Shown here in pieces: positions 36,907-60,109 of a DNA stretch of 60,596 nt; the first letter of the stretch is position 1; each line of letters starts with the position of its first letter. Position numbers and translations under genes: made by a program. The notes under the pieces were generated by a model. It had not been told where the DNA came from. It ran no database searches and saw nothing but the letters and a program-made list of their open reading frames with translations. The stretch is from a virus (Duplodnaviria > Caudoviricetes): IMG/VR virus record IMGVR_UViG_3300024308_000030, positions 1 through 60,596 of that record; one strand, written 5' to 3'.

Positions 36907-36908
36907 GG

Positions 36909-37583
36909 TCAGGCCCTCTTCGGCTTCCAGTGCTCGCAGCGGGTGACCGGGCACCAGCCGCGGCACAGGCCGGACGGCTTGGGCAGGAACACGCCGCGGT
37001 CGTAGGCCGCCTTGAGCATCCGGTACTTGTCCTCGTACACCATCCACAGCGCGTAGAGGTTGTTGCGGAAGTAGCTGATGGGCGCCGTGATCTGGTGGAC
37101 GGCGAGCCACACGTAGCCGCAGCGCACCTCCTTGATCTCCGGGTAGTGCTCCATGATCAGCAACGCGTACAGCAGCAACTGGGTGGTGTCGGTCTTGACC
37201 TTGCCGGTCTTCCAGTCGAACACCTCGGCCACGCCGTCGTCGCGCAGGATCAGCACGTCGATCTTGCTGCGCACCCACACGTCCTTGTCGAAGAACCCCG
37301 TGGGCTTCTTGTCGATGGTCAGGGCGAACTCGCCCTCGATGACCTTGGTGCCAGGGCGGCGCGCCATCCAGGCGGCCTCCTTGGCGAACGGCTTGAGGTT
37401 GGACGGCAGCGGGGTGCCGTCACGCACGAACTCCTCCAGCCCCTTGTGGACCTCGTTCCCCCAGCGGGTGGCGTCGGTCTCCTCGAACTTGACCTCCTTG
37501 GTCACGTACTTCGCTTCGTACTGCACGCCGCACGTCTCGAACGTGCTCATGCTGGTGTGGCTCCACGCGATGACGTCGCTCAC
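36909..37583 (-). CDS. PD-(D/E)xK (Cas4/RecB-like) exonuclease
   Basis: 'WSHTSMSTFETC', 'GNEVH', 'IDVL', 'DWKTGK', 'QLLLYA', C-terminal 'C..WC....C'. Confidence 0.88.
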   Translation of the reverse strand: MSDVIAWSHTSMSTFETCGVQYEAKYVTKEVKFEETDATRWGNEVHKGLEEFVRDGTPLPSNLKPFAKEAAWMARRPGTKVIEGEFALTIDKKPTGFFDKDVWVRSKIDVLILRDDGVAEVFDWKTGKVKTDTTQLLLYALLIMEHYPEIKEVRCGYVWLAVHQITAPISYFRNNLYALWMVYEDKYRMLKAAYDRGVFLPKPSGLCRGWCPVTRCEHWKPKRA

Positions 37584-42485: not shown

Positions 42486-42789
42486 GGATGTTTCCCCAGT
42501 AGTTGCTGCCTACGTACACCTTGATCACGCCCCGCAGCGCTGCCGCATTGGCGGCAGCAGTCATCTCGCCGAACGTTACCTCGGGTCCACTGCACAGGAT
42601 CTCGCCTTCGTGTATGACGACACGCGTCTTGAGCTCCTGGCTCCACCCCCGGTTGGGGGCGAAGTTCATCCAGCGCATGAACTGGTTCATGCGTGTCTCG
42701 CTGCGGCGCACGCGCTCGACGATCTCCTGAATCGGATCGCCGCCGTACTTGCCGTCTTCGTAGCCGTGAGGCCGTTTGTCTTCAGACAT
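42478..42789 (-). CDS. hypothetical protein
   Basis: MSEDKRPHG...; GGAG RBS. Confidence 0.6.
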   Translation of the reverse strand: MSEDKRPHGYEDGKYGGDPIQEIVERVRRSETRMNQFMRWMNFAPNRGWSQELKTRVVIHEGEILCSGPEVTFGEMTAAANAAALRGVIKVYVGSNYWGNIHV

Positions 42790-43060
42790 GGATAGCTCCC
42801 AGCGCCAGTGCGGCGCACAGTGTTTCGAACGAATCGTAGGCGGCATAGAAGCACACGTAGTTCTGCCGCGATCTTGGTATTGTCGTAACGGGCGAACGAA
42901 CAACCCACGTGCCGTTGAACGAGCCTACGTAGATGACCCTGCCGAATCGCGAAGGGCCGCCTGTCAGCCAATACGCTCCTGCGAACCGTGACGTCGCTGT
43001 ATTCATCCCGAGACTACGTAGAACTTGTAGCTGCTGGGGAGTAAAGAAGTCGCCGTTCAT
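42782..43060 (-). CDS. small array-family protein
   Basis: 'QVLRSLGM'...'YDSFETLCAALALG'. Confidence 0.65.
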   Translation of the reverse strand: MNGDFFTPQQLQVLRSLGMNTATSRFAGAYWLTGGPSRFGRVIYVGSFNGTWVVRSPVTTIPRSRQNYVCFYAAYDSFETLCAALALGAIHV

Positions 43061-43353
43061 TTCGTCAGCTCCAGGTAAGCGACCATCGCTTCGAACGTGT
43101 CGAACGCGGCGACGATGCAGAAGTTGCGGGTGTCGTGCCCGCCGTTGCGTTCTTGCTCCGTCATCGACGGGCGCAGTACCCAGTGGTCTTTGTACATCGT
43201 CCCGTACAACTCTCGGTCACAGCACATGGCGCCGAACCAGGAAGCATTCATGTCCGTCACGTCGTCTGCACCGCACCAGAGGCAAACGTAGGCGTACCCC
43301 AAGGTCTTCAGCCTGGTCTTGTACGCCGCCGGTATACTCACGTGGACGCTCAT
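43057..43353 (-). CDS. small array-family protein
   Basis: 'RLKTLGY'...'FDTFEAMVAYLEL'. Confidence 0.65.
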   Translation of the reverse strand: MSVHVSIPAAYKTRLKTLGYAYVCLWCGADDVTDMNASWFGAMCCDRELYGTMYKDHWVLRPSMTEQERNGGHDTRNFCIVAAFDTFEAMVAYLELTK

Positions 43354-44210
43354 GCGAGCGCCCCGGTGAAGAAGGCCAGCACGTCCTTGTGCATGGCGCA
43401 GGCCTCGTTGAATGCCGCCTTGCGGGCGTGCGGGTCGGTACGCAGGCGGTCAGGCTCGTGCTGGCACAGGTGCTGCGACAGGCGCTTGGCGATCACGTCC
43501 AGCTGAGGGTCGGCGGTGAGGTTCAGCGACGGCAGCACTTCGGCCAGGTCGCGGGCGTTCTCTACCAGGCTGTCGCGGAACACGGTCTCGGGCTTCGCCA
43601 GGCGATCGATGAACGCCTCCAGCACCTTGGCCACCCGCTGGTAGGCATCGCCCACGGCGCTGGTCAGCGTGGCCGTGGTGGTGCGCTCGATCTCTGCCTG
43701 GACCCGGGCCAGCTCGTCCTCGCCGATCTCGACGCGGAAGTCGCCGGCGCACGGCAGCGGCAACACGTTCAGGCGGAAGTCGAACTTGCCGGCCAGCACG
43801 TCGGCGGTCGGGTAGTCGTCCTCGTTGAACAGGGTGCCCAGCAAGCGCTTGGCTTCCTGGCGGTGCAGCGGATAATCACCCAGCAGCTGGGCGACGGCGT
43901 TGTCGAACTCGGTCTTGAACTCGCCGATGCGCTGCATGTAGTCGAAGTAGCCCATGCTCGACAGGGCGCGCGGGCCGGCGTCGGACCAGGGCAGAGTGCA
44001 GCGGTAGTGGTAGTCGCGGGCCGAGCGCACCACCTTCTGCACGGTCTCCAGCGCGGAGCCGTCGATCAGCGACTTGTAGTAGGTGCCCTGGTTCTGCGCC
44101 AGCTGGTGGTTCGCAGCGACCTCGGACGTGGCCTTGCGGTCGATCTTGCGAGCAGTCCACTGCGACACGCGCAGGTCAACGAGCATGGCTTTGGTGGCAA
44201 TGTGGGTCAT
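43350..44210 (-). CDS. DUF3150-like protein
   Basis: 'LVDLRVSQWTARKID', 'TLPWSD.G.R', 'FNEDDYP', 'FRDSLVEN' motifs of proteins accompanying phage AAA/VWA modules. Confidence 0.7.
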   Translation of the reverse strand: MTHIATKAMLVDLRVSQWTARKIDRKATSEVAANHQLAQNQGTYYKSLIDGSALETVQKVVRSARDYHYRCTLPWSDAGPRALSSMGYFDYMQRIGEFKTEFDNAVAQLLGDYPLHRQEAKRLLGTLFNEDDYPTADVLAGKFDFRLNVLPLPCAGDFRVEIGEDELARVQAEIERTTTATLTSAVGDAYQRVAKVLEAFIDRLAKPETVFRDSLVENARDLAEVLPSLNLTADPQLDVIAKRLSQHLCQHEPDRLRTDPHARKAAFNEACAMHKDVLAFFTGALA

Positions 44211-44230
44211 GGTGTTTCTCCGGTCAGGGT

Positions 44231-44497
44231 TTAGTTCATCGTCAGTGCGGCGTACATCACCGCGGCTTGCAACTGGTCTGGTTCAAACACTAGCAAGGGC
44301 GGTCCTACAGGACCAAATTTTTTCGACTTGTGCACGTGCCACTGGCCGGTGCCAGCGGCGTTCGGCATCACGACGGCGGTCTCCGACGCGTAGCCGCAGA
44401 ACTGAGTCTCGCCGTCGTAGCGGGTGATCGTGTACCACCCTTCGGGCAGCCACTCGGGTCGGTCTTCGGTCATTTCCACCACCACGAACTCATTCAT
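44231..44497 (-). CDS. small array-family protein
   Basis: 'WLPEGW'...'QLQAAVMYAALT'. Confidence 0.6.
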   Translation of the reverse strand: MNEFVVVEMTEDRPEWLPEGWYTITRYDGETQFCGYASETAVVMPNAAGTGQWHVHKSKKFGPVGPPLLVFEPDQLQAAVMYAALTMN

Positions 44498-44792
44498 AGG
44501 CCGGGTTGTATCCGTCCTGCTGGGTCAACATGAAGGCGACGGCGGCCGCAGCCGGCGATGGGAACCCACCGAGGATCGTCTTGGCCTTCTCCCTCGGCGA
44601 GCTGATAGTCGTGATCGCCCACAGCCCGTCGTCGAAATCGTCCCGCCAGATCCGCAGTGCCCGGCGCACCACCCGCCCATCGGGGTAGCGGAAGTCCACC
44701 ACCCGGCGCCACGACGGTACGCCCTGGCGGTCGGAGCTGTGCAGCTGCCACTCCTCGGGCATCACCCAGAGGCTTTCCTGGTGGCTGTTCAC
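44490..44792 (-). CDS. small array-family protein
   Basis: 'MPEEW'...'FPSPAAAAVAFMLT'. Confidence 0.62.
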   Translation of the reverse strand: MNSHQESLWVMPEEWQLHSSDRQGVPSWRRVVDFRYPDGRVVRRALRIWRDDFDDGLWAITTISSPREKAKTILGGFPSPAAAAVAFMLTQQDGYNPAYE

Positions 44793-45223
44793 GGCTTGAA
44801 CCAGCTCGGCGGGAAAGCCTCCAGATCGGCCGCGCAGTATTTGCGCATGTCGTATTCGTACTTCCTCATGGCTGCCTGGTACTCAGCCATGGACTGCCCC
44901 GGCTTGACGTTGCGCAAGGCGTCGTGGGCCATTCGCGCCAGGGACAAATCTGGCGTGTTGGCTTTTGCCGGCGCCAGCTCAGGGTTCAGCTCGACCGCCA
45001 CCACTGCTGCCACCGGTGTCGGGTAGAACGTCATCGACCCTTCGAAGTGCCACTTGATCGCGCCGCTCACGGGCTTGGCTCGCAGCTTCGGCTGGCCTTC
45101 CTTCTGGAATGCAGCGCCTTCCACCAGATCGTAGCCGTGCTCGTACAGCTGGCGGACCCAGGCCCAGGCTTCGTCTTCGCTGGGCGCCCACATGTCGATC
45201 AGAAGTTTCATTTTCGCCTTCAT
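44789..45223 (-). CDS. array-family protein with C-terminal extension
   Basis: 'APSEDEAWAWVRQLYEHGY'...'YPTPVAAVVAVEL'. Confidence 0.68.
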   Translation of the reverse strand: MKAKMKLLIDMWAPSEDEAWAWVRQLYEHGYDLVEGAAFQKEGQPKLRAKPVSGAIKWHFEGSMTFYPTPVAAVVAVELNPELAPAKANTPDLSLARMAHDALRNVKPGQSMAEYQAAMRKYEYDMRKYCAADLEAFPPSWFKP

Positions 45224-45226
45224 GGT

Positions 45227-45643
45227 CTACCACCCTCGGGGTTCGGTGAACTCAGTGTCGTCGGCTTTAGCCTCGATCCGTTCTGTGTAACTGCGTATCG
45301 GCACCTTAGCCTTCGGCACCTTAGCCTTTGGGGGCACCGGCGGAATTTCGTCGGTTTCGACGAACAAATCCAGGGCAACTACGGCTGCGACCGGAGACGG
45401 GTAGGTCACTTTCTCGTCGTTCATGAGCGGCCTGCCGTTCCTGCACACAATCCAGCGGACTGCGCCGGCGACCAAGCAAGGCAGCATGTACTGGCCGTGT
45501 TGGTTGACGAACCCGGGGATCGTGTTCTCATCCCCCGGGCTCGTCAGAATCCAGCCACGCTCGTGCATGGTGCGGAGCCAGGCCCAGCCTTCGTCTACTG
45601 TCGGCGCGGCGTGGTTAACTAGTCTAGTTATCGGATCTTTCAT
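45227..45643 (-). CDS. array-family protein with C-terminal extension
   Basis: 'APTVDEGWAWLRTMHERGW'...'YPSPVAAVVALDL'; close paralog of the adjacent gene. Confidence 0.68.
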   Translation of the reverse strand: MKDPITRLVNHAAPTVDEGWAWLRTMHERGWILTSPGDENTIPGFVNQHGQYMLPCLVAGAVRWIVCRNGRPLMNDEKVTYPSPVAAVVALDLFVETDEIPPVPPKAKVPKAKVPIRSYTERIEAKADDTEFTEPRGW

Positions 45644-45902
45644 CGCTCGCTACTCTGAAAAGGCCAGGGAAAATCAGGATCAGCTGGGCGTACGCGGCCT
45701 CCGCGTCGGGGAGCAGCGTGATGTCCACGTCGCCGACGATAATGCGCAGCTCGTCGCCCGTGGTCGTCGTGTGCAGCTGGATACGCCCGTCCGGTATTGG
45801 GTACGCGAGGTTCACCTCCAGCCGCGGCAGCCGGTCGTACATGATCTCGGCCGCGCTGGTGTTGGTGAAGCCCGTGTACGCCAGCATCCAGTTCTCAATC
45901 AT
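45624..45902 (-). CDS. small array-family protein
   Basis: 'MLAYTGF'...'LPDAEAAYAQLIL'. Confidence 0.6.
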   Translation of the reverse strand: MIENWMLAYTGFTNTSAAEIMYDRLPRLEVNLAYPIPDGRIQLHTTTTGDELRIIVGDVDITLLPDAEAAYAQLILIFPGLFRVASDERSDN

Positions 45903-46210
45903 TTCGGATCTCCCATCAGCTGCATCACGGCGTGGACCATCATCGGGTCAGGGTAGGGGCCAACGTCCCATGTGTCCCAGTCACGGTCGTCGTGGTAGCT
46001 GAACCCCCTGATGTGGTTCAGAGCTGGGCGCCAGGGGCGCCAGCGCCCACCCCACATACCCTGGTGCTTGCCCTGCAGGATCGGCACGATGAAGCGGCCG
46101 CGGTGCTCACGGACAGGCATAGCGAACCGCTCGCGGGTGCCGTTATTCCGCCAGTCGTAGCCGAGCTTGCGCATGGCAACGCGCTGCTCCTTGGTGCTAG
46201 TCCAGATCAT
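45899..46210 (-). CDS. small array-family protein
   Basis: 'AMRKLGY'...'YPDPMMVHAVMQLMG'. Confidence 0.65.
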   Translation of the reverse strand: MIWTSTKEQRVAMRKLGYDWRNNGTRERFAMPVREHRGRFIVPILQGKHQGMWGGRWRPWRPALNHIRGFSYHDDRDWDTWDVGPYPDPMMVHAVMQLMGDPK

Positions 46211-46478
46211 CTTTCGTCAACTCCCATGCGAACAGGGCTGCCTGCGGCGACTCGTGCCATTCGCCCAGCATCCCGAGCTTCCACAAGTCATTCGAGCAAT
46301 GCAGGTTCACCGCATAATCGGGATGACCGAACCGTCGGTTGAGCCTGATATCGGTCACCCCTCTGTACGCGGTACTTATGTCGGCCCAGCCTTCAGCTGC
46401 TACCCAGTCGAGGTTTCGTTGCTTGCGTGTCTTCCACTGCAACGGCGTCAGCTGGCCCTTCGCCCACTTGGTCTTCAC
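46197..46478 (-). CDS. small array-family protein
   Basis: 'WVAAEGW'...'HESPQAALFAWEL'. Confidence 0.65.
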   Translation of the reverse strand: MKTKWAKGQLTPLQWKTRKQRNLDWVAAEGWADISTAYRGVTDIRLNRRFGHPDYAVNLHCSNDLWKLGMLGEWHESPQAALFAWELTKDDLD

Positions 46479-46702
46479 TGCGCACCCCCCAGCAGTGCGT
46501 AGGCTGCTGCGGCCTGGACCGTCTCGAACCGCACTGTCTCCCTTGATCCCTTAGTCCATGCCACCCAGCCTGGGCGCAGATCGAACTCTTTCTCGATGGC
46601 GGCGGGGAAATGGTCGTCGTAACGCTGTTCACCATGCGTCCAATAAAAAACGTCCGGGTTGTTCACCCACCCGTTCTCGATCAGCCACTGCTCGTCGTTC
46701 AT
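46475..46702 (-). CDS. small array-family protein
   Basis: 'WLIENGW'...'FETVQAAAAYALLG'. Confidence 0.68.
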   Translation of the reverse strand: MNDEQWLIENGWVNNPDVFYWTHGEQRYDDHFPAAIEKEFDLRPGWVAWTKGSRETVRFETVQAAAAYALLGGAQ

Positions 46703-46932
46703 TCCGGCGGTCCTAGTAGAGCCCAGGCCACAGCGGCCTGGACAGAAGGGAAAATCTTCCCGTGCTCAGACCCGGCGGGAAACCCCTGCCACACCAGACT
46801 ACTGGCGTTCTGGCGAACCGCAGCGGGTTGGGGCTGGCTGACCCCTGTGCCTGGCGCAAACCACCACTCGCACATCGGCGTCCAGCCGTTGGCACGCAGC
46901 CATTCTTTGTCAGCGTTCGTCGAACTGGACAT
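46699..46932 (-). CDS. small array-family protein
   Basis: 'WLRANGW'...'FPSVQAAVAWALLG'. Confidence 0.68.
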   Translation of the reverse strand: MSSSTNADKEWLRANGWTPMCEWWFAPGTGVSQPQPAAVRQNASSLVWQGFPAGSEHGKIFPSVQAAVAWALLGPPE

Positions 46933-48049
46933 TGATCGTGGTCCCCCACGGCGACTTGACGTCGGTGGTGCTGAGCCACAACACGTTCGGGCGCTCGTCC
47001 CCGAACGGCGTGTAGCCGTCGGTCAGCACGATCGTCAGCTGGGCGTCCGGGGCGTTCTTCTCGACCCAGTCCAGGCCAACGGTCATGTCGGTCCCACCAC
47101 CGCCCACGCGCTTGGCGCTGGTGCGGACAGCTTCCGGGTCGGGGCGCTCGAAGTAGTCCACGTGGTTCACGTCGGCGTCGACGTAGATCACGATCAGCTC
47201 GCTCGGGCACACGTCGTTGACCGCGCCGCACACCTCGCCGAAGAACTGCCGCAGCTCCTTGGCGCCGATCGAACCCGAGGTGTCGATCTGGAACACCAGC
47301 TTGCGCATGGCGCCGTCGCTGTACAGCCCGGGCAGGTAGGTGCCCTGCGCCACGAAGCGGCGGTTCGGCCTGGCGAACGTGTAGTCGGAGCGTGCCTTCT
47401 CGGTGAGATAGACCTTGAGCTGTTCCTGCCAGGCGACCACCGGGTTCATCACCTCGTCGATCAGCTCGCGGATGCCGGCCGGCAGTTTGCCCATGGCCTT
47501 GGCCACCTGCGCCGCCTTGGCGATAGTCGCCTTGGCTTTTGCCTGGGCCGCCGGACCCTGGTCCGGGGCGTCCATGAGGTCGTCGTCCAGCGGGTTGCCG
47601 TTACCGTGGTCCGCACCTCCGCCACCCGGCGGGTCGGGCGGCAGCTGGGCATAGACCTGCTCGCTGGTCATGCCGGCGTAGGCCTGGCTGTGCAGCACGC
47701 CAGCGGGCAACGAACCTTTCTCCTTGAAGATGATGTCGTTGATCACGTAGTCGGCGGCATGATTCCAGCGCTGCGGGCTGCGGCCCTGGCGGCGCCACGG
47801 ATGCATCAGGGCGATGTGCATGCACTCGTGCTTGAGCACGCCCACGGCTTCGGCCAGCGGGAGCTTGTTGAAGTTGACCGGGTTGACGTACAGATTCGCC
47901 CCGTCGGTGGCCGCTTGCCACAGCTTGCGTCCGTCCGGGAGTTCCTGGGTCTCGATCACCTTCAGGCTGAACATGATCGTCGCGTAGAACGGGTGATTGA
48001 TCACCAGCTGCGTCTTGGCCTTTTCGAAAATCGAGTGCTTCTTAATCAC
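46910..48049 (-). CDS. HExxH metallopeptidase-like + VWA domain protein (DUF2201-like)
   Basis: 'AATDG', 'HECMH', 'WNHAADYVIN', MIDAS 'IDTSGS', 'GGGGTD', 'LTDGY'. Confidence 0.88.
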   Translation of the reverse strand: MIKKHSIFEKAKTQLVINHPFYATIMFSLKVIETQELPDGRKLWQAATDGANLYVNPVNFNKLPLAEAVGVLKHECMHIALMHPWRRQGRSPQRWNHAADYVINDIIFKEKGSLPAGVLHSQAYAGMTSEQVYAQLPPDPPGGGGADHGNGNPLDDDLMDAPDQGPAAQAKAKATIAKAAQVAKAMGKLPAGIRELIDEVMNPVVAWQEQLKVYLTEKARSDYTFARPNRRFVAQGTYLPGLYSDGAMRKLVFQIDTSGSIGAKELRQFFGEVCGAVNDVCPSELIVIYVDADVNHVDYFERPDPEAVRTSAKRVGGGGTDMTVGLDWVEKNAPDAQLTIVLTDGYTPFGDERPNVLWLSTTDVKSPWGTTINVQFDER

Positions 48050-48278
48050 GGCTCTTCACCTCTGCGATCAGTTGGGTAAGCTGGCGCGCGGCGGCGCGCA
48101 GCTCCCGGATTTGTTGCAGCTCCTCGCGGAGCGTGACCAGCACGCGCTTCCTCGCACGAGCCAGTTCCTCTTGGATGCATGCCAGCGCGAAGCGCCCGTC
48201 GAGCTTGGCGTCGTCGCTCAGTCCCTCGGCCTGCAGTCTACGGCTGGCCTTGGCCAGTTCGCGCTTCCACTGGGTCAC
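48042..48278 (-). CDS. small coiled-coil protein
   Basis: 78-aa helical ORF between VWA and AAA genes. Confidence 0.5.
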   Translation of the reverse strand: MTQWKRELAKASRRLQAEGLSDDAKLDGRFALACIQEELARARKRVLVTLREELQQIRELRAAARQLTQLIAEVKSRD

Positions 48279-48576
48279 GTTGCACCTTCCTCGGGTCTCG
48301 CTTGACGTCCTCCGGCGTCAGCAGGAACGCTGCTGATGCCGCTTCGGCCGAGGCGAAGACCACGTTGTAGACCGTCCTCGGGTATCGATGCCCGGTCGTG
48401 AGGTCTGCGATCAGGGCTCGCATCCGCCAGCCATTGGGTTTCCTAGCCGGGGCTATCACCCAGCGCGTCGAACCGATGGGGTTCTTGTGGCTGTAGCGCC
48501 AGTAGGCGAATGACTCGCCGCCCGGCGACAGCAGCGGTTTCCAGCCCTGGTTGACCAGGGCTTGGATCGGCTCCAC
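48238..48576 (-). CDS. array-family protein
   Basis: 'ALVNQGW'...'FASAEAASAAFLLT'. Confidence 0.62.
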   Translation of the reverse strand: MEPIQALVNQGWKPLLSPGGESFAYWRYSHKNPIGSTRWVIAPARKPNGWRMRALIADLTTGHRYPRTVYNVVFASAEAASAAFLLTPEDVKRDPRKVQRDPVEARTGQGQP

Positions 48577-48577
48577 C

Positions 48578-49687
48578 TCACACCCCAGAGATCAGGCTGG
48601 CGTTGCTGATGGCCCACTTGTTGAAGGTGCTGGTCTGAGACAGGGTGCTGTCGCGACGCAGCGAGTCCTGGATGCTGAGCACGGCCATCTCCGGGCGCCC
48701 TGCCTTGGCGAAACGCTCCAGGTAGTTGAACACGCTCTCCTGGTTCTCGTGGGTGGTGCGAGCACCCAGGGCGACAGCCACGGCGTACTGAGTCGCGCTG
48801 TCGTCCGGCAACGGGGCGCTGTGCGGGTTGAGCAGGATCGCCTCGATGCTCGGCATTTGCAGCCAGACGTCGCGGAAGGCGATGTACTCAGCCGCCGGGC
48901 CCTTACCCACAGATCCCATGGCCAGGTTGTACATGCGGTCAGCCGGCAGCTTGGCCTTCTCGTAGCGGTCCACCATCACCCAGCTGCGCTCGGTGGCGAA
49001 TGCGTCGCCCTCCAGCTTCTTGGTGACGTGGTCGTCGAACGTGTTGAGCAGGTCCGGGCGCATCGCCATGAACGCCAGCAGGCAGGTCTCGATGTTGCCT
49101 TGGGACAGGCCCCAGCTACGCCAGCAGTCGAGGTCCGACTCGACGTCGATGTGGGTGGCACGGTTGGCCAGCGGCGTCGGCATCTTGAACACCACGCCGC
49201 CGTCGGTCATGCGGTTACCGGTCATGACGATGCTCCAGCCCGGCTTCATGCGCTTGCTACCGATGCGACGGTCGTGCGTCAGCTGGTAGGCCGCGGCCTG
49301 CACGGACATGGGCGCCGAGACGATCTCCTCCAGGGCGAGGATGCCGTAGTCCGGCACGTCCTCGCGGCCGATGAAGGGGAACCAGTCGGGCACCAGGCGA
49401 TCCTGGGTGCCGTGCACGCTCGCCACCGGCAGGCCGCCGATGTCCACCGGGTCGCACTGCGACAGGCGCACGTCGATGAAGCCGAAGCCGTCCTTCATGC
49501 CGAAGCCTTCGGCCGGCTGATCGCCGTACTCGATCACGCCCGCCTTGAGGCCCAGGTCTTCGGCGCGCTGCGCCGAGGCTTGGAGGATGGCAGCGGACTT
49601 GCCGATGCCGGGAGCTCCGCGCACCATGAGCACGGTGCTGGCGATGTTGGCGTCACGGATGTGGGCGATCAGGTCATTTACGTTCAT
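48578..49687 (-). CDS. MoxR-like AAA+ ATPase
   Basis: Walker A 'GAPGIGKS', 'DVRLSQ..PVDI.GLP', Walker B 'LALEE', 'TGNR', 'PLANR'. Confidence 0.88.
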   Translation of the reverse strand: MNVNDLIAHIRDANIASTVLMVRGAPGIGKSAAILQASAQRAEDLGLKAGVIEYGDQPAEGFGMKDGFGFIDVRLSQCDPVDIGGLPVASVHGTQDRLVPDWFPFIGREDVPDYGILALEEIVSAPMSVQAAAYQLTHDRRIGSKRMKPGWSIVMTGNRMTDGGVVFKMPTPLANRATHIDVESDLDCWRSWGLSQGNIETCLLAFMAMRPDLLNTFDDHVTKKLEGDAFATERSWVMVDRYEKAKLPADRMYNLAMGSVGKGPAAEYIAFRDVWLQMPSIEAILLNPHSAPLPDDSATQYAVAVALGARTTHENQESVFNYLERFAKAGRPEMAVLSIQDSLRRDSTLSQTSTFNKWAISNASLISGV

Positions 49688-49760
49688 GGTGTATCTCCGT
49701 TCGGGTTAACTAGGGGTAGTTACTGCGGGTTGGTGGAGCTAAATCTCAAACTGTAGGCAT

Positions 49761-49788
49761 AGTTTACACTAGCCAGGGTAAGGGTCAA
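49761..49788 (-). promoter_or_regulatory. putative sigma70 promoter for AAA/VWA operon
   Basis: minus strand TTGACC-N16-TAAACT; palindrome at 49706-49722 lies just downstream. Confidence 0.65.
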
Positions 49789-49793
49789 GTTTT

Positions 49794-50057
49794 CTAGGAT
49801 GCGTTGCTGCTTAGTGCCACGAAAGCGATGACCGCCTCGGGCGATTCGAACGTACCCTTGAGGACAAAGCCGGTGACTGCGTGCGCGTCCCACTGTAGAA
49901 GACGGACGGTGGTCCAGTACAGGCTGTACGTACCGCGACCTGCGTAGCGCCGAACCTCCCAGGTGCCGCCCTTAACGTGCTTGCGGTAGTAGCGCGGGGC
50001 GTCGTTTTTCTTGTGCCACCCTGTGGCGCGGAACAGGTTGGGTTTTTGCTCAGCCAT
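49794..50057 (-). CDS. small array-family protein
   Basis: 'LFRATGW'...'GTFESPEAVIAFVAL'. Confidence 0.7.
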   Translation of the reverse strand: MAEQKPNLFRATGWHKKNDAPRYYRKHVKGGTWEVRRYAGRGTYSLYWTTVRLLQWDAHAVTGFVLKGTFESPEAVIAFVALSSNAS

Positions 50058-50271
50058 TTCGGCCTCCTTGTGTCAGTGCCACGTAGGCGATGACCGCCTC
50101 GGGCGATTCGAAAGTTCCACAAAAGCGTGTGAGGCCGCCGTCCAGAGCGATCAGCTTCCACCCGTTTTCGACGAGGATAGTCAGCCAGTAGCCACGGGGC
50201 CGTCCACGCAGCGTGTAGGACTGCCCCGTGGCGCAGGACCAGCCAGCCTCCAGGAACAGCGCGCTAGCCAT
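50050..50271 (-). CDS. small array-family protein
   Basis: 'LFLEAGW'...'GTFESPEAVIAYVAL'. Confidence 0.7.
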   Translation of the reverse strand: MASALFLEAGWSCATGQSYTLRGRPRGYWLTILVENGWKLIALDGGLTRFCGTFESPEAVIAYVALTQGGRNG

Positions 50272-50527
50272 GCAGGTCGCTCCTCATCTGGAAGTAGACG
50301 CAGAGCGCGGCCGCGGTTGGATACACGCCGAGCGACATGGTCTCCACCCGCCTGGCGCTGCCTGTGTTACGGCAGGTGACCTCGTTGAGATACCACTGGT
50401 CGTCGATACCGCGCGCCGCCGAGTAGGTGGTACTCACTGTGGCTCCTTTCCGCATCCACACCCAGTCCTCTCCGTTCCAGTGGCTCTTCTTCCAGCCGAA
50501 CGACAGGAACGGCTCTTCGTCGGTCAT
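50264..50527 (-). CDS. small array-family protein
   Basis: 'MTDEEPFLSFGW'...'YPTAAALCVYFQM'. Confidence 0.68.
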   Translation of the reverse strand: MTDEEPFLSFGWKKSHWNGEDWVWMRKGATVSTTYSAARGIDDQWYLNEVTCRNTGSARRVETMSLGVYPTAAALCVYFQMRSDLHG

Positions 50528-50769
50528 GACTGCCACCCCTTGATCTCCGCGGCAATGAACGCCGCCAGCGCGGTTTCGCCGTAGGCGACCTCGCTCCAGC
50601 CGCCGTTGACTTTCACCGCCCATGCCATCCACAGAGTCTCGTGCCTGACGCTGGGTTGGTCTCTCCCATGCGGCATCGGCGCCATCACACAGCGCCCACG
50701 AAGGCCCGTCCAGTCGCCGTCCGCGTCAACCATGAACCCCGCCTCAATGAGCAGCCGCGAGTCGTCCAT
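50524..50769 (-). CDS. small array-family protein (DGDW subgroup)
   Basis: 'LLIEAGFMVDADGDW'...'GETALAAFIAAEIKG'. Confidence 0.7.
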   Translation of the reverse strand: MDDSRLLIEAGFMVDADGDWTGLRGRCVMAPMPHGRDQPSVRHETLWMAWAVKVNGGWSEVAYGETALAAFIAAEIKGWQS

Positions 50770-51235
50770 CGCGCACCTCCCTCATCACCCGACGGGACTC
50801 CTTGTCGCACCACGCGTTGCACCACTGGCGAGGCTCCCACACGCCGGCATGGGCCTTGACGTGGTTGACCTTGAGCCAGAACTGGTGCTCGGCCTGGGCC
50901 CGCTGCAGCTTCGACAGCAGAGTGGCGATCTCCGGCCTGGCCGTGAGGCGGTTGGCCGCGCCCTCCAGCACCTGCTTGACCGCCAGGCAGTCGGTGACCA
51001 GCACCAGCCGGCGCGACGGCCCCTGGCGCAGCTCCGGGCCTATCACCGGGTGCCGGTACAGGCGGTCGAACGCATGCAGCGCGGCCAGCAGCTCGGCGCC
51101 GCCCGAGCAGGCGGCGTCAATGGCGAAGCCCTCTTTGTAGAACGTGCTCCCAGTCCTGGCCCAGAACGCAGCGCCGCCGGCGCGCGTGTGGGTACAGAAA
51201 CTGGCGTCCGTGAACAGGGTTATGTTTTCGATCAT
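50744..51235 (-). CDS. RNase H-like protein
   Basis: 'LFTDAS', 'GAELLA', 'VTDC..V', 'HVKAH', 'N..CD' RNase HI catalytic pattern. Confidence 0.82.
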   Translation of the reverse strand: MIENITLFTDASFCTHTRAGGAAFWARTGSTFYKEGFAIDAACSGGAELLAALHAFDRLYRHPVIGPELRQGPSRRLVLVTDCLAVKQVLEGAANRLTARPEIATLLSKLQRAQAEHQFWLKVNHVKAHAGVWEPRQWCNAWCDKESRRVMREVRDGRLAAAH

Positions 51236-51468
51236 CGCGAATCTCCAGTCAGTAGTGCGCGGGCCACGAGCACCAGTGGATGCTCGCCGGGTTTACTTCG
51301 CATCGACTGCCCTTCCATGGGCCAGAAGTCCCATTCGACACCGTCGAAGTTACATTTCTCGTCGTACAGCATTCCTGCTGGTGACGACCAAAAGTAGCCT
51401 CCGCGCCAGTTGTACGGCATGTCCTCCTTTTCCCACCCCGCTGCACGCAGGTCGTCTTCAACGCTCAT
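51232..51468 (-). CDS. small array-family protein
   Basis: 'DLRAAGW'...'PGEHPLVLVARALLTG'. Confidence 0.7.
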   Translation of the reverse strand: MSVEDDLRAAGWEKEDMPYNWRGGYFWSSPAGMLYDEKCNFDGVEWDFWPMEGQSMRSKPGEHPLVLVARALLTGDSR

Positions 51469-51722
51469 AGCGTGTCTCCAAGCAGTAGCAACGCCGCGGT
51501 GTACGCTGCGAGCGGCGACACGCCATCCGCTATGCGCTCCTGGTAATACTGGACCTGCCACAGGGTTGGGTGGCGTTCCACGCGACCCGAGCGTAGCCAC
51601 GGTACGTTACTGGGTCGGATCAAGAATACGTGGATGCCGTCTACGCGGCTGTTAGACACCCAGTCGCCCTCGACATCGCGCTCGAATCCGATACGCTTTA
51701 GCTCTCTTTCCTCACTGTTCAT
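51465..51722 (-). CDS. small array-family protein (DGDW subgroup)
   Basis: 'ELKRIGFERDVEGDW'...'GVSPLAAYTAALLLLG'. Confidence 0.72.
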   Translation of the reverse strand: MNSEERELKRIGFERDVEGDWVSNSRVDGIHVFLIRPSNVPWLRSGRVERHPTLWQVQYYQERIADGVSPLAAYTAALLLLGDTL

Positions 51723-51960
51723 GTATCACCCCGAAAAGTATCGCCGCTCCATACGCCGCGAGCGGCGTGGCAGCTTTGGCTATGTTGCGGCCGTTGTACC
51801 TTACGGTCCAGAAAACTGGGTCGCGGTTATGGCTGTCGTGCCGCGCAGTCGGACGGAGCAGAAAGACCCGGGGACTACGCGCGCCGAAGCACCAGTCGCC
51901 GTCGTGGTCGAGGAACAAGCCGAGGCGTTTGAGCTCGGCGATCTCGTCTTCAATTCCCAT
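51712..51960 (-). CDS. small array-family protein (DGDW subgroup)
   Basis: 'ELKRLGLFLDHDGDW'...'ATPLAAYGAAILFG'. Confidence 0.72.
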   Translation of the reverse strand: MGIEDEIAELKRLGLFLDHDGDWCFGARSPRVFLLRPTARHDSHNRDPVFWTVRYNGRNIAKAATPLAAYGAAILFGVIHEQ

Positions 51961-52201
51961 CGGCCACCTCCGGCAGCAAGGACTGGCCTGCGTACGCAGC
52001 CAGTGGCGTGGGCGCAAAGAAAGACCCGCGCTTGCGGTTGGTGCACTGCCACTGCGAACCGCGCACCAGGCCGTAATGAAGATTCGGACTGAACAACCAG
52101 GTGCGGGTGCCCCGGTTAATCCAGTCACCGTCCTGATCCTCGACGAACCCCAGCGCGGCGAGCTGCTCGCGCTCTTCGGCGGTAATCAGTTGGCTATCCA
52201 T
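51950..52201 (-). CDS. small array-family protein (DGDW subgroup)
   Basis: 'ITAEEREQLAALGFVEDQDGDW'...'APTPLAAYAG'. Confidence 0.72.
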   Translation of the reverse strand: MDSQLITAEEREQLAALGFVEDQDGDWINRGTRTWLFSPNLHYGLVRGSQWQCTNRKRGSFFAPTPLAAYAGQSLLPEVADGN

Positions 52202-52430
52202 CGAGCGATCCTCCCCGCAGCATCCACAAAGCTAATGCGGCCAGTGGCCTATCGGCGCCGACCAAAGCCTCACCGAATCTACCGGCTTCCCATCTGGGTG
52301 GCTTCTCCCACTCGCGGGGGCGGAACAGACAGACGGATCGCACGAGACCATTGCTCCAATCCCCGTCCAGGCCCTCGACAAACCCCAGTTCGAGGAGCTT
52401 CTGGCGCTCCTCGGTGGTGATTTTGCGCAT
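52194..52430 (-). CDS. small array-family protein (DGDW subgroup)
   Basis: 'ITTEERQKLLELGFVEGLDGDW'...'DRPLAALALWMLRG'. Confidence 0.72.
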   Translation of the reverse strand: MRKITTEERQKLLELGFVEGLDGDWSNGLVRSVCLFRPREWEKPPRWEAGRFGEALVGADRPLAALALWMLRGGSLDG

Positions 52431-52443
52431 GATTTAACTACTC

Positions 52444-52665
52444 CTAGTTAATGGACAGCTGCCACGCGGCGAAGACCGCCAGCGGGTGCTGCCCGGGCTC
52501 GCCGCTACGTCCTGGGCTTTGGCCGAAACGGCCTGTACTCCATGTCTTCCCGGTTCGCACGACATAGAACTCGCTCTGCCTGAAATAGGCTATGCCCTCC
52601 ATCGCATCGACGTATTTCACCGGCTCCCAGCCGCAGTCCAACAGGTCCAGCTCTTCTTGGGTCAT
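52444..52665 (-). CDS. small array-family protein
   Basis: 'LLDCGW'...'PGQHPLAVFAAWQL'. Confidence 0.7.
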   Translation of the reverse strand: MTQEELDLLDCGWEPVKYVDAMEGIAYFRQSEFYVVRTGKTWSTGRFGQSPGRSGEPGQHPLAVFAAWQLSIN

Positions 52666-52922
52666 GGCTGATACCCCGCCAGTTGCCAGCGCACGTAGAG
52701 CGCGACCGGCGATTCATCTGGCGCTCCAGTGGCCAGTCGCCCGCTGCCCTGCAGCCACAACTCCCAGCCCCCGTGGCCGTTGAACTTCGGCGGGTAGAGG
52801 CATAGCAAATATGGATGCGTTTCGATGTGTTTCTCCCATCGCCGCTCGCTTATGTCCCGGTAATGCATGCCGTCGAGGTAGAACCCGTACGCCCTGAGCG
52901 CATTGAAATCGTCGTCAGTCAT
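52662..52922 (-). CDS. small array-family protein
   Basis: 'ALRAYGF'...'GRLATGAPDESPVALYVRWQLAG'. Confidence 0.72.
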   Translation of the reverse strand: MTDDDFNALRAYGFYLDGMHYRDISERRWEKHIETHPYLLCLYPPKFNGHGGWELWLQGSGRLATGAPDESPVALYVRWQLAGYQP

Positions 52923-53170
52923 GTCGCGTCTCCAGTCAGCAGCCAGCGCGCGTAGAGCGCCACAGGGCTCTCGCCTGGTGCACCGCGCGCCACCAGCCTG
53001 CCTTGGCGCCATACATCCCAGCCGGGATGGTCATTGTCTTCCGGCGCGTAGATCGACGTTCGGTGTCCGCATACGTTGTGGCGTCTGTAAGCCCTGCGTA
53101 CCTCGTGGTCCGCAACGGGCGTGAAGCCGTAGGCGGCCAGCGCCTCGCCGAACTCTTTCCACTCGCTCAT
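52919..53170 (-). CDS. small array-family protein
   Basis: 'ALAAYGF'...'GRLVARGAPGESPVALYARWLLTG'. Confidence 0.72.
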   Translation of the reverse strand: MSEWKEFGEALAAYGFTPVADHEVRRAYRRHNVCGHRTSIYAPEDNDHPGWDVWRQGRLVARGAPGESPVALYARWLLTGDAT

Positions 53171-53424
53171 AGGAACCCCCGCAGCTTCAACGACGCTAGC
53201 ATCGCGTCGAGCGTTTCGTAGTACTCGTCGAAGTTGTGCCTGTCGATGTCTCGCGTCGGCCAGTAGATGTTCCACATGCGTCTCTTTTCTCCGGTACGGG
53301 CGCGATCTGCGACGGACACACCCGGCGGGTACAGCCACGCGCTGGCCCAGCCGATGTCCTTGGTGTACTTTCCGTTACGCCAGTGATAGAACCCCGCCGC
53401 GTTCAGCTTTTCTTCGTCGGTCAT
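53167..53424 (-). CDS. small array-family protein
   Basis: 'MTDEEKLNAAGF'...'YETLDAMLASLKLRG'. Confidence 0.7.
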   Translation of the reverse strand: MTDEEKLNAAGFYHWRNGKYTKDIGWASAWLYPPGVSVADRARTGEKRRMWNIYWPTRDIDRHNFDEYYETLDAMLASLKLRGFL

Positions 53425-53702
53425 AGCAAACCCTCCAGGGCCAGGCATGCCAGGATCGCGGGCAGCGGACGGTAGTCCGGCTCGTCGTAGCTCGCGGGAA
53501 ACTGGCCGCGTGCGGGCATCGTCACGAGAAATCCGCTGGCGAGTGGGTCGTTTGTCTTCTGTATGATCAACCTGGCTATCCCTTCGCCGCCGTGGCTACG
53601 CTGGACGTAGCGGTAGGTAGTTTCGCCGAGCCAGGTCTCGCGCTTAAATCCGTACTGAGCCAGGATGTCACGCTCGGCCTGGCTCATCAGTTCTACTTTC
53701 AC
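53421..53702 (-). CDS. small array-family protein
   Basis: 'ERDILAQYGF'...'YRPLPAILACLALEG'. Confidence 0.68.
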   Translation of the reverse strand: MKVELMSQAERDILAQYGFKRETWLGETTYRYVQRSHGGEGIARLIIQKTNDPLASGFLVTMPARGQFPASYDEPDYRPLPAILACLALEGLL

Positions 53703-53914
53703 ATCCAGCCCTCCAGTTTCGCTGCGACGATCAGAGCCACGGGGTCGCCTTCGCCGAACACGTCCCACACCAAATCATCGGTGTAAAGGTTCCACCCGCT
53801 CAGGCCATTTCTATCCAGCCAGTGGGTCGGCTTGCCGTTGACGCGGCGCACGAACCCGTTTGAGGTCATGGGCTTGCACTCGAAAAACCCAAACTCGGCC
53901 AGCTTCTCGTTCAT
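53699..53914 (-). CDS. small array-family protein
   Basis: 'KLAEFGF'...'RRVNGKP'...'GDPVALIVAAKLEG'. Confidence 0.72.
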   Translation of the reverse strand: MNEKLAEFGFFECKPMTSNGFVRRVNGKPTHWLDRNGLSGWNLYTDDLVWDVFGEGDPVALIVAAKLEGWM

Positions 53915-54159
53915 AGATCACCCACCAATACGGCTGCAGTTATGAGGCTCACCGGGTCATCGCCGTGCTTGAAATAGACCGGGTTCTTGCTGACGTACAG
54001 CGACCAGTACCGGCGCTCTTGCTGCCCTTCGTACTCTGGCAAGAACGGCGGGTACACGGCCGCCACGGGGTGGCCGTTCACGCGCTTGCACATGCAGTCG
54101 GCTTCCTTGTAGAACCCGTGGGCGGCCAGGGCCGCCAGCTGTTCGTCGGTCAGGTTCAC
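53911..54159 (-). CDS. small array-family protein
   Basis: 'LTDEQLAALAAHGF'...'KRVNGHP'...'GDDPVSLITAAVLVG'. Confidence 0.72.
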   Translation of the reverse strand: MNLTDEQLAALAAHGFYKEADCMCKRVNGHPVAAVYPPFLPEYEGQQERRYWSLYVSKNPVYFKHGDDPVSLITAAVLVGDL

Positions 54160-54377
54160 AAATCACCTCGCATTGTCGCCGCTGCGACGAGTGCTATGGG
54201 GTCGGGGCCTTCGTAGAACGGCCCGAGGCCCGCAAGACTCCACACCCTGGCCGCTCGGAGGTAGACCAGCGTCGCTTTCAGCGTACCGTCAGGCCGTCGA
54301 GCGGCCCAGATGGTCCCACCGTGGAGCCTGAACCCGTAGGCGGCGAGCGCTTCTTTCTCTTCGTCGGTCAGTCCCAT
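54156..54377 (-). CDS. small array-family protein
   Basis: 'LTDEEKEALAAYGF'...'GPDPIALVAAATMRG'. Confidence 0.72.
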   Translation of the reverse strand: MGLTDEEKEALAAYGFRLHGGTIWAARRPDGTLKATLVYLRAARVWSLAGLGPFYEGPDPIALVAAATMRGDL

Positions 54378-54598
54378 ACCACACCCTCCAGAATCGCCCT
54401 GGTTACCAGCACCACGGGGCATGGCCCCGTATACGGCTGGACATCACCGGTGACCATCCATAGGCGCTGGCTGGTCAGGTACTGGACGATCGCGATCACC
54501 TTGTCCAGGTCGTTGCGCTTGACCCAATAGCTCGACAGCTTGTCACGCACGAACCCGTGGGCGGCCAGGGCGTCCTGCTGTTCCTGCGTCAGGTCCAT
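54368..54598 (-). CDS. small array-family protein
   Basis: 'LTQEQQDALAAHGF'...'GPCPVVLVTRAILEG'. Confidence 0.72.
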   Translation of the reverse strand: MDLTQEQQDALAAHGFVRDKLSSYWVKRNDLDKVIAIVQYLTSQRLWMVTGDVQPYTGPCPVVLVTRAILEGVVWD

Positions 54599-54848
54599 CG
54601 GTTACCTCCTTCTTGACCAGGGTTGCGATCATGGTGAGCACGCGCAGGTTGTCGCGCAGGTCCGGGGACAGCGGCGTCAGCTCCACGCGGCAGGTCGTGT
54701 CCCCGCCGTTGGTGTCGCTGACCCAGCGCGCGTTGGCGCCCTCGCCTGGCGAGTACCTGAACCCGTGCGCAACCAGCCAACGGGCCCGCTCATCGTGGTC
54801 GGTGAACACGATCATGAACGTGTTCTTGGTGTGCGGCGTCACCTTCAT
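54543..54848 (-). CDS. hypothetical protein, possibly a divergent array member
   Basis: MKVTPHT...'RWLVAHGF'; ATGA overlap. Confidence 0.55.
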   Translation of the reverse strand: MKVTPHTKNTFMIVFTDHDERARWLVAHGFRYSPGEGANARWVSDTNGGDTTCRVELTPLSPDLRDNLRVLTMIATLVKKEVTDGPDAGTAGRPGRPRVRA

Positions 54849-59345: not shown

Positions 59346-59499
59346 ATATTCGTGGTCGTCTCGTGGCTACTTCTAGCCCTGGCCGCCTGTGGGAATCAGG
59401 CTGGACGCCTAGTGCCACGCGGCTTGCAGCCGTTTTTACCCTCTAATCGGGCTTTAGCTTAACTACAACTAGTTAACCTTTCGCTACATCTGAAACAAC

Positions 59500-59524
59500 A
59501 AAACCCGGCGCAAGGCCGGGTTTT
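59500..59524. terminator. bidirectional intrinsic terminator
   Basis: AAAACCCGGC-GCAAG-GCCGGGTTTT downstream of 59543..60109. Confidence 0.85.
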
Positions 59525-59542
59525 GGGTACATCGGGCTCAGA

Positions 59543-60109
59543 TCATTCGGCGTCGTCCGCCAACAGCTCCGTGGCCACGTCGTCCAGCAGGTCGGCTATC
59601 TCGGAAATCAACTCCAGCGCCGTGGCCTTGCCTGCCGCTTGGGCACGCACACGTTCCAGCGCAGCACGCAGGTCGGCCAGTGCTGCCGGGTCGCCTTCGA
59701 CCGGCGGAGCCTTGGGAGTCTGCGGCGCGCGTTCACGCCCCTTGATCAAGCCCTTGGCCTTGGCGTTCTCCCGTGCCGACTTCGCGAAGGTCTGGACGCT
59801 GCCGCCGCCGGCACCGGCCAGGGCTTCTTCGGGGAGGGTCATGATGGTCTTCGCCTCGGAACCGCGCATCTTCGCAGTCAGCTCGGCGCAGCCGGCGTCG
59901 AGGAAGGCGTCACGGACACGTTCCACGACGGTTTCGACGTCGAAGCCAGAGCGGCGCGCTTCGAGCACCAGCTCCAGCAGCAGGCGGGACGCGTTGGTAT
60001 GCTCGACTGCAGCCTTCGACAGGGCTTCGCCCCATGCAGTGATTGAGCGGGACGCTACGGCAGCGTCGGCCTTCAGGGACGAGTTCTTACGTACGGATTG
60101 CTTAGCCAT
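59543..60109 (-). CDS. hypothetical helical protein (first gene of - arm)
   Basis: 188 aa; GGAGATACACC-ATG leader identical to that of the AAA gene. Confidence 0.75.
   Translation of the reverse strand: MAKQSVRKNSSLKADAAVASRSITAWGEALSKAAVEHTNASRLLLELVLEARRSGFDVETVVERVRDAFLDAGCAELTAKMRGSEAKTIMTLPEEALAGAGGGSVQTFAKSARENAKAKGLIKGRERAPQTPKAPPVEGDPAALADLRAALERVRAQAAGKATALELISEIADLLDDVATELLADDAE

Follow-up and report, generated by a model that had tools for sequence, protein, structure and literature searches.

In jumbo phages, a MoxR ATPase and a von Willebrand factor A (vWA) partner fused to a metallopeptidase are predicted to form a chaperone pair, for which the available text of Iyer et al. 2021 (PMC7824862) proposes a role in virion assembly. 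In bacteria, MoxR-vWA ternary conflict systems encode a fast-evolving third component (VMAP or iSTAND) alongside the pair, and the available portion of their description (Kaur et al. 2020, PMC7159879) also includes small multi-copy co-effectors, in the form of tandem DUF397 copies. Here we describe a related arrangement in an uncultured tailed phage, IMG/VR record IMGVR_UViG_3300024308_000030: an array of 31 small open reading frames (ORFs) of 71-144 residues, on the minus strand at 42782-54848, in which an AAA+ ATPase gene and a metallopeptidase-VWA gene are embedded. The whole virus record (60,596 bp; CheckV completeness 99%) was analyzed and is called the window below. Comparisons of the encoded proteins show the array to have arisen by lineage-specific tandem expansion of a small protein family not described before, and in its arrangement it varies the MoxR-vWA theme in a new way. 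Drawing on structural modeling, we tentatively favor, with confidence somewhat short of even, the reading that the array is a repertoire built on one scaffold, whose members would be adaptors for, or clients of, the ATPase/VWA machine encoded within the array.

Like the jumbo-phage pair, the window encodes an ATPase (PHROG 1297) together with a DUF2201_N (HExxH)/DUF2201 VWA protein (PHROG 1314). In the latter, at 46910-48049, a metallopeptidase domain at the N terminus is joined to a vWA domain, as in the pairs described in the available text of Iyer et al. 2021. Unlike the jumbo-phage pair, which that text presents as two components (PMC7824862), the pair in the window lies on the replication arm, amid at least 25 paralogs of a third small protein. 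In this respect it is similar to the vWA-MoxR ternary systems as outlined in the available part of PMC7159879: in the window, as in three related genomes (G001, G003, and G004), genes for a third component adjoin those for the ATPase and the VWA protein or lie between them. The same source describes VMAPs as large, multidomain proteins of cellular genomes, one per system, with effector domains and a VMAP-C core of about seven strands and six to seven helices, whereas the third component in the window is viral, has at least 25 copies and no effector domain, and consists of a domain of ~75 residues with two helices and four strands. A VMAP-C or iSTAND core as described there was not found in the family domain, to which no Pfam family matched.

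The original prediction, made from the letters and their translations, held that about 30 mostly translationally coupled genes are paralogs that share an N-terminal helix ending in LxxxG[FWY], a variable core, and a conserved C-terminal helix. Every motif example that it quoted is present in the translations, and the end motifs are indeed commoner here than in other ORFs. LxxxG[FWY] occurs in 22 of the 31 array ORFs versus 30 of 808 background six-frame ORFs (shuffled sequences averaged 2.3 of 31), the strict C-terminal helix motif in 15/31 versus 13/808, and both motifs in order in 10/31 versus 0/808. Pairwise phmmer searches joined 20 of the 31 ORFs in seven clusters, each composed of neighboring genes. 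With profiles from which the tested cluster was excluded (cluster-out profiles), most members scored above all of 840 six-frame ORFs but one, and this sole exception, 36478-36909, is itself a further family member. A conservative iterated profile, run on the window and three related genomes (3,437 ORFs), converged on 25 of the 31 ORFs and on 36478-36909; the control gave no matches at E < 1e-3 in either reversed or shuffled ORFs. Six ORFs (g01, g06, g24, g25, g30, and g31) were not recovered by the converged profile and had cluster-out scores of 0-7 bits. Since their hhalign P values (0.026-0.076) were barely better than those of 13 unrelated small ORFs (0.08-0.86), they are counted as possible and not as members. 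For one of them, g30, AlphaFold with the family alignment gave a model (pLDDT, the predicted local distance difference test score, 63.5) with two defined end helices and an undefined core. The array is confirmed with a corrected count: 25 of the 31 ORFs are sure paralogs, whereas the other six are possible only, and one extra member lies elsewhere. Sure membership is based on cluster-out profiles, pairwise phmmer clusters, the converged iterated profile, and hhalign. The family ORFs of the window are the following.

54543-54848, minus strand: g01, possible member, 101 residues; N-helix motif only; cluster-out 6.4 bits; profile E 3e-3; hhalign P 0.034; 56-nucleotide (nt) overlap with g02
54368-54598, minus strand: g02, sure member, 76 residues; phmmer cluster, cluster-out profile, iterated profile E 7e-11
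54156-54377, minus strand: g03, sure member, 73 residues; phmmer cluster, cluster-out and iterated profiles
53911-54159, minus strand: g04, sure member, 82 residues; phmmer cluster, cluster-out and iterated profiles
53699-53914, minus strand: g05, sure member, 71 residues; cluster-out profile, hhalign, iterated profile
53421-53687, minus strand: g06, possible member, 88 residues; cluster-out 4.5 bits; hhalign P 0.026, N helix only
53167-53424, minus strand: g07, sure member, 85 residues; cluster-out profile, iterated profile E 2e-6
52919-53170, minus strand: g08, sure member, 83 residues; phmmer cluster, cluster-out and iterated profiles
52662-52922, minus strand: g09, sure member, 86 residues; phmmer cluster, cluster-out and iterated profiles
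52444-52665, minus strand: g10, sure member, 73 residues; phmmer cluster, iterated profile
52194-52430, minus strand: g11, sure member of the DGDW group, 78 residues; phmmer cluster, iterated profile
51950-52201, minus strand: g12, sure member of the DGDW group, 83 residues; modeled with AlphaFold, pLDDT 87.9, predicted template modeling score (pTM) 0.77
51712-51960, minus strand: g13, sure member of the DGDW group, 82 residues; phmmer cluster, iterated profile
51465-51722, minus strand: g14, sure member of the DGDW group, 85 residues; phmmer cluster, iterated profile
51232-51468, minus strand: g15, sure member, 78 residues; phmmer cluster, cluster-out and iterated profiles
50524-50769, minus strand: g16, sure member of the DGDW group, 81 residues; phmmer cluster, iterated profile
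50264-50527, minus strand: g17, sure member, 87 residues; hhalign P 1e-5, iterated profile
50050-50271, minus strand: g18, sure member, 73 residues; phmmer cluster, iterated profile
49794-50057, minus strand: g19, sure member, 87 residues; phmmer cluster, iterated profile
48238-48576, minus strand: g20, sure member, 112 residues, directly downstream of the ATPase gene and partner in the complex model; cluster-out and iterated profiles
46699-46932, minus strand: g21, sure member, 77 residues; phmmer cluster, cluster-out and iterated profiles
46475-46702, minus strand: g22, sure member, 75 residues; phmmer cluster, cluster-out and iterated profiles
46197-46478, minus strand: g23, sure member, 93 residues; cluster-out and iterated profiles
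45899-46210, minus strand: g24, possible member, 103 residues; cluster-out 7.0 bits; profile E 2e-3
45624-45902, minus strand: g25, doubtful member, 92 residues; both end motifs by eye, without the invariant Trp; cluster-out 0 bits, rank 293; hhalign P 0.056
45227-45643, minus strand: g26, sure member, 138 residues, family domain with C-terminal tail; phmmer cluster, iterated profile
44789-45223, minus strand: g27, sure member, 144 residues, family domain with C-terminal tail; phmmer cluster, iterated profile
44490-44792, minus strand: g28, sure member, about 90-100 residues; cluster-out and iterated profiles
44231-44497, minus strand: g29, sure member, 80-88 residues; cluster-out and iterated profiles
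43057-43353, minus strand: g30, possible member, 98 residues; phmmer pair with g31; only the end helices defined in the model
42782-43060, minus strand: g31, possible member, 92 residues; phmmer pair with g30; cluster-out 2.3 bits; hhalign
36478-36909, minus strand: 26th member, family domain (about 75 residues) with a Cys-rich tail (~65 residues); cluster-out and iterated profiles; 6 kb from the array, between PD-(D/E)XK and VRR-NUC-like nuclease genes

The g12 model, computed from a 26-sequence alignment, consists of a helix (residues 8-16), four strands, and a second helix (residues 66-74), and the alignment-free ESM Atlas model of the same protein reached a pTM of 0.66. Conserved positions are L14, G18, F/W19, W27, P39, W51 (invariant), P66, A68, A69, L75, and G77, and the fold-anchor residues among them (L14, G18, F/W19, W51, P66, A68, and L75) lie in or beside the end helices and strand 3. 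The mean BLOSUM score is 1.06 in the N-terminal helix and 1.00 in the C-terminal helix versus 0.29 in the core, where most insertion columns fall, concentrated after positions 21, 26, 33, and 42. Thus, conserved end helices with a hypervariable, indel-rich core on one scaffold, as proposed from the translations, are borne out by the g12 model and the conservation profile. The proteins are soluble, and most are mildly acidic, with a median pI of 5.9 (16 of 31 below 6); their Trp content is 4.2% versus 1.4% in eight large genes. In most array genes, the Shine-Dalgarno (SD) sequence of the downstream gene is located inside the C-terminal L-x-G(-D) codons of the upstream gene (e.g., 54377-54392, 53424-53439, and 52922-52937), so that part of the motif conservation may reflect a translational rather than a protein constraint.

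Serial tandem duplication as the origin of the array is supported by the similarity of neighboring copies. The mean identity of adjacent genes (0.296) exceeds that of all 10,000 permuted gene orders (0/10,000), and identity declines with gene distance (Spearman -0.19, P 3e-5). The duplications are old, not recent: the best pair of copies is only 45% identical. At the DNA level, a near-identical end is shared only by g18 and g19 (C-terminal 44 nt, 91%); other shared ends are 66-86% identical. A tree of 44 family members is saturated, with 29 of 41 inner branches left open, and was for this reason not used for orthology. Copies from the window group together in it (4 label changes versus 14.2 in shuffles), which fits an expansion within the lineage of the window without proving that it took place there. 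Multigene families that expand as gene accordions are known from poxviruses and giant viruses, whose genomes are far larger. The array is similar to them in tandem duplication followed by divergence and in copy number that varies between relatives, and it differs in the age of its copies (at most 45% identity) and in the far smaller genome.

Judged by profile searches, the family is new and undescribed. None of the 31 array proteins has a credible match in Pfam, PHROGs, NCBIfam (zero matches), or PADLOC, where two matches near E 0.01 are at chance level in a library of defence, not anti-defence, genes. When the array was compared by megablast with 50,697 phage records, no match emerged, and the family profile produced two chance-level rows among PDB sequences. 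A Foldseek search with the g12 model found no match at E ≤ 0.001 in PDB or BFVD, and the best ESM Atlas hits, to unnamed viral clusters (best feature score 0.79, best template modeling (TM) score 0.55), are leads only. The rarity of the family was upheld when its profile was run against 1.84 billion representative proteins: the 19 matches were 17 proteins of the window itself, one repeat artefact, and one foreign protein of 88 residues. This homolog (P0016) was seen once, on a 5.2-kb ENA contig, and was absent from searches of viral_contigs and metagenome_contigs; a profile made from 44 family sequences added eight more unnamed proteins on contigs of up to about 65 kb. Literature searches, which did not extend to full texts, found no published phage case of at least 25 tandem paralogs and no published adaptor library for an ATPase/metallopeptidase-VWA pair; at the same depth, the literature on DUF2201 and on ABA sandwich, DUF2591, and NinX proteins contained no such array.

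The nearest cultured relative is Pseudomonas phage Rollin (OR577172.1), with a DNA polymerase 47.5% identical to that of the window. Six uncultured IMG/VR contigs have polymerases that are 49-55% identical, and three of them (G001, G003, and G004) are complete genomes with terminal repeats. The iterated profile identified five sure family copies in G004, four in G003, and two in G001, plus eight borderline ones, versus 26 in the window; a looser, unconverged iteration gave 6, 9, and 2 copies in G004, G003, and G001. A partial relative, L007, has at least three copies. The family, the ATPase gene, and the VWA gene are all absent from the whole Rollin record. Only 49 features are annotated in this record, and the stretch from about 51.8 to 61.3 kb has none of them, which leaves its early region effectively unannotated. 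As far as databases reach, these comparisons show the family to be confined to a small clade of uncultured phages of ~58-65 kb. Two matches in G003 have features of their own: 53514-53990 looks like the 36478-36909 member, with a similar tail, and a borderline match at 59428-59859 (minus strand; E 4e-3) has an N-terminal part that looks hydrophobic, as if membrane-anchored.

The G+C content of the window is ~64%, and no tRNA genes were found in its 60,596 bp. Its left half carries structural genes on the plus strand, including a capsid protein (Phage_capsid_4), and its right half carries replication genes on the minus strand: a primase-polymerase/DUF927 helicase, an SNF2 helicase, a PD-(D/E)XK nuclease, a family A DNA polymerase, an HNH endonuclease, and an Rv2179c-like exonuclease. 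The array lies upstream of the replication genes. All 31 of its ORFs have coding-type G+C by codon position, where the third position (GC3, 0.62-0.87) exceeds the first and the first exceeds the second. The genes are mostly translationally coupled, as had been noticed from the sequence: 27 of the 31 share nucleotides with the gene upstream, in 15 cases through a 4-nt overlap of the ATGA/GTGA type, and an SD-like word precedes 27 of the 31, both counts depending partly on start choice, because starts were picked partly by the SD and the family N terminus. From the coordinates, the 25 sure members occupy ~6.6 kb (11%) and all 31 ORFs ~8.4 kb (14%); the original prediction had put the share at roughly an eighth of the genome. 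Contigs from four DNA sequencing runs of one study match the array with 0 to 4 letter differences, so that the assembly is reproducible; three of the four runs may be the source of the window DNA and are thus not independent. No RNA sequencing runs containing the window are listed.

Five other genes break up the array, and a palindrome recurs in it.

50744-51235, minus strand: RNase H (PF00075, E 1.7e-8), overlapping both neighbors
48578-49687, minus strand: AAA+ ATPase, 369 residues; PHROG 1297, E 2.7e-79; Walker A GAPGIGKS in the translation
48042-48278, minus strand: coiled-coil ORF of 78 residues, flanked by g20 and the VWA gene and outside the family (hhalign negative control, P 0.86)
46910-48049, minus strand: metallopeptidase-VWA protein, 379 residues; DUF2201_N E 5.9e-44 and DUF2201 E 1e-20; HExxH present as HECMH
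43350-44210, minus strand: DUF3150-like protein, 286 residues; 48-52% identity in three complete relatives; ESM Atlas 0.98, TM 0.95
52435-52450, no strand: palindrome TAACTA-N4-TAGTTA between g10 and g11, containing the SD of g11
49707-49722, no strand: palindrome TAACTA-N4-TAGTTA in the 106-nt spacer that precedes the ATPase gene
45616-45630, no strand: palindrome TAACTA-N3-TAGTTA at the g25/g26 junction

The palindrome TAACTA-N3/4-TAGTTA has eight copies in the window (45616, 49707, 52435, 57285, 58742, 58932, 59460, and 60273) versus none expected. The three inside the array are at block boundaries (g25/g26, g19/ATPase, and g10/g11), and these sequences may be operators, promoters, or RNA hairpins. 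Two overlaps are unusually long, g01/g02 (56 nt, 54543-54598) and g20/78-residue ORF (41 nt, 48238-48278), and could be due to late stops or mis-set starts. Tblastn at E ≤ 1e-5 found no RNase H homolog in the three relatives or in Rollin 30000-61282.

In G001, G003, and G004, the genes for the ATPase, the VWA protein, and the 286-residue protein are kept at 41-52% identity, and in these three genomes, as in the window, family members are immediate neighbors of the three genes or are located between them. Homologs of the ATPase at ~30% identity are present in 789 phage records, including N4-like phages, and some are labeled MoxR-like. No Pfam AAA model reaches its cut-off with the ATPase itself, even when matches up to E ≤ 10 are admitted, and no PDB sequence matches it. 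PHROG 1314 labels the VWA protein as "HNH endonuclease", which looks wrong because 46910-48049 consists of a DUF2201_N metallopeptidase and a DUF2201 VWA domain. The 286-residue protein has no Pfam match even at E ≤ 10, and its ESM Atlas clusters are viral, with DUF3150 on 29% of members.

We modeled the ATPase, the VWA protein, and g20 as a three-chain complex, each chain with its own alignment, along with three controls. The model scored 0.61 and the best of the three controls 0.01, an outcome that supports binding and does not show it. The mark applied to such scores is reached by 58 of 80 solved complexes and by 2 of 110 mismatched pairs, and is rough for a three-chain model with own alignments. 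The runs share at least 64% of contacts, with a partner pLDDT of at least 69. In the model, g20 residues 6, 9-10, and 72-90, in the N- and C-terminal helices, contact the C-terminal helices of the ATPase (residues 336-369) and residues 17 and 186-188 of the VWA protein. The original prediction had seen the proteins as binders or adaptors; the predicted helix contact of g20 with the ATPase speaks for this, a support that is model-based.

Under the tentatively favored reading of the array as adaptors or clients of the ATPase/VWA machine, the ancestral state would have been a few copies flanking a module of three genes, for an N4-type AAA+ ATPase, a metallopeptidase-VWA protein, and a DUF3150-like protein. 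The conserved end helices would form a shared handle by which each copy attaches to the C-terminal helices of the ATPase when the VWA protein is present, and the hypervariable hairpins and loops of the core would give each copy a distinct surface. The copies could then act as exchangeable third subunits that steer one ATP-driven remodeling or proteolytic machine to many host or phage proteins, and the array would be expressed together with the replication-side genes. The complex model fits this design of a handle plus a variable face without proving it. A bolder version, which we regard as unlikely, is that the array is an encoded library of substrate receptors, in which interchangeable adaptors of 75 residues would aim the AAA+/metallopeptidase-VWA machine at two dozen host proteins, including defence proteins; such arrays would arise through tandem duplication, with unrelated small families taking the same part around the pair in other phages. 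A library of this kind would follow the logic of F-box proteins or ClpXP adaptors in a virus.

Several observations weigh against a role of the array proteins with the ATPase/VWA pair. The complex model covers one paralog of 25, the positionally conserved g20, and the control that kept g20 and the ATPase and replaced the VWA protein dropped to 0.01, so the modeled ATPase contact depends on context. The end helices may be conserved perhaps only for holding the fold together. Fifteen of the 25 sure members in the array (g02-g16, g06 excepted) are upstream of RNase H; over 1.5 kb and one palindrome separate them from the ATPase gene, and one further member is 6 kb outside the array. The co-occurrence of family and module amounts to a single phylogenetic contrast, one clade versus Rollin, and the ATPase-VWA pair occurs without the family, with no family matches in the 11-kb loci of two of two N4-like phages (pVa5 and IME11). 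Finally, the name "MoxR-like" comes from the labels of homologs in other records, because the ATPase has no Pfam AAA match.

The absence of the family from both N4-like loci would be expected if the paralogs were stand-alone binders, each of which inhibits or modulates a different host protein in host takeover or counter-defence, with the adjacency to the ATPase and VWA genes being early-operon housekeeping. We consider this possible, if rather unlikely. On the one hand, the proteins are small, soluble, mostly mildly acidic, and Trp-rich, they diverge fast, they number 26 versus 2-5 sure copies among related phages, they have no relatives outside the clade, and their genes belong to the replication-side arm, where they precede the replication genes. 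On the other hand, the argument rests on a general habit of phage accessory genes, because no member resembles a catalogued family, and it leaves unexplained both the members that flank the ATPase in all four family-bearing genomes and the complex model that passed its controls.

The modeled ternary contact (0.61 versus 0.01 for the best control) suits a client as well as an adaptor. The small proteins might be substrates of the pair and not adaptors, and the pair could unfold or cleave them or load them into a larger structure, for example the virion; the VWA partner has an HExxH peptidase domain, and virion assembly and peptidolytic processing are proposed for such pairs in the available text of Iyer et al. 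(PMC7824862). We judge this improbable, as the genes are part of the replication arm and stand apart from the structural genes, and it is difficult to see why structural parts should comprise 25 distinct substrates whose cores are hypervariable. No cleavage-site motif was seen either, though none was sought.

Copies that are at most 45% identical, with cores barely alignable, and six ORFs too diverged to demonstrate homology would also be left by a past amplification whose decaying trace ("accordion") has little or no function per copy. This is very improbable: all 31 frames are open with coding-type GC3, 27 of the 31 are still translationally coupled with SD-like words, and the fold-anchor residues are retained across 25 copies. 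A dead weight of 11-14% should moreover be lost quickly from a capsid-limited 60-kb genome.

The original prediction had also suggested a likeness to NinX/DUF2591 or phage ABA-sandwich domains, which has no sequence support in Pfam models, a window scan, or hhalign. NinX/DUF2591 (PF10765, cut-off 22.6 bits) matched none of the 31 proteins at E ≤ 1 and nothing in the six-frame window at E ≤ 10, where the control rang in E. coli, and hhalign of the 44-sequence family profile against P22 NinX gave a probability of 0.2% (P 0.27). The ABA-sandwich domain (PF18066, cut-off 27 bits) likewise matched none of the 31 at E ≤ 1 and nothing in the window at E ≤ 10, and no Pfam HicA model was among the matches of the 31 at E ≤ 1; Foldseek gave weak, non-significant rows to phage proteins labeled HicA (E 1.3-1.6). 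What points to these families is the helix-sheet-helix order and an N-terminal helix that ends in G-aromatic, and NinX and ABA-sandwich proteins are, like the array proteins, small phage proteins of unknown function, from which they differ in showing no sequence or profile similarity. With PF10765, PF18066, and HicA models all unmatched and P22 NinX at 0.2%, we give hardly any credence to the array proteins being a known small alpha/beta phage family (NinX/DUF2591, ABA-sandwich, or HicA-like with a double-stranded RNA-binding domain fold).

At least 25 old paralogs that take up 11% of a 60-kb tailed-phage genome are a limit case for duplication in a capsid-limited genome, and the size and age of the array argue for selection on diversity. 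The family domain, new and confidently foldable without a database entry, suits structural and binder-evolution studies. ATPase homologs occur in 789 phage records, and the function of the pair is so far only proposed, to judge from the available text of PMC7824862. If the small fast-evolving neighbors are exchangeable third subunits, this function becomes testable, and a role would then be at hand for long segments of phage "dark matter".

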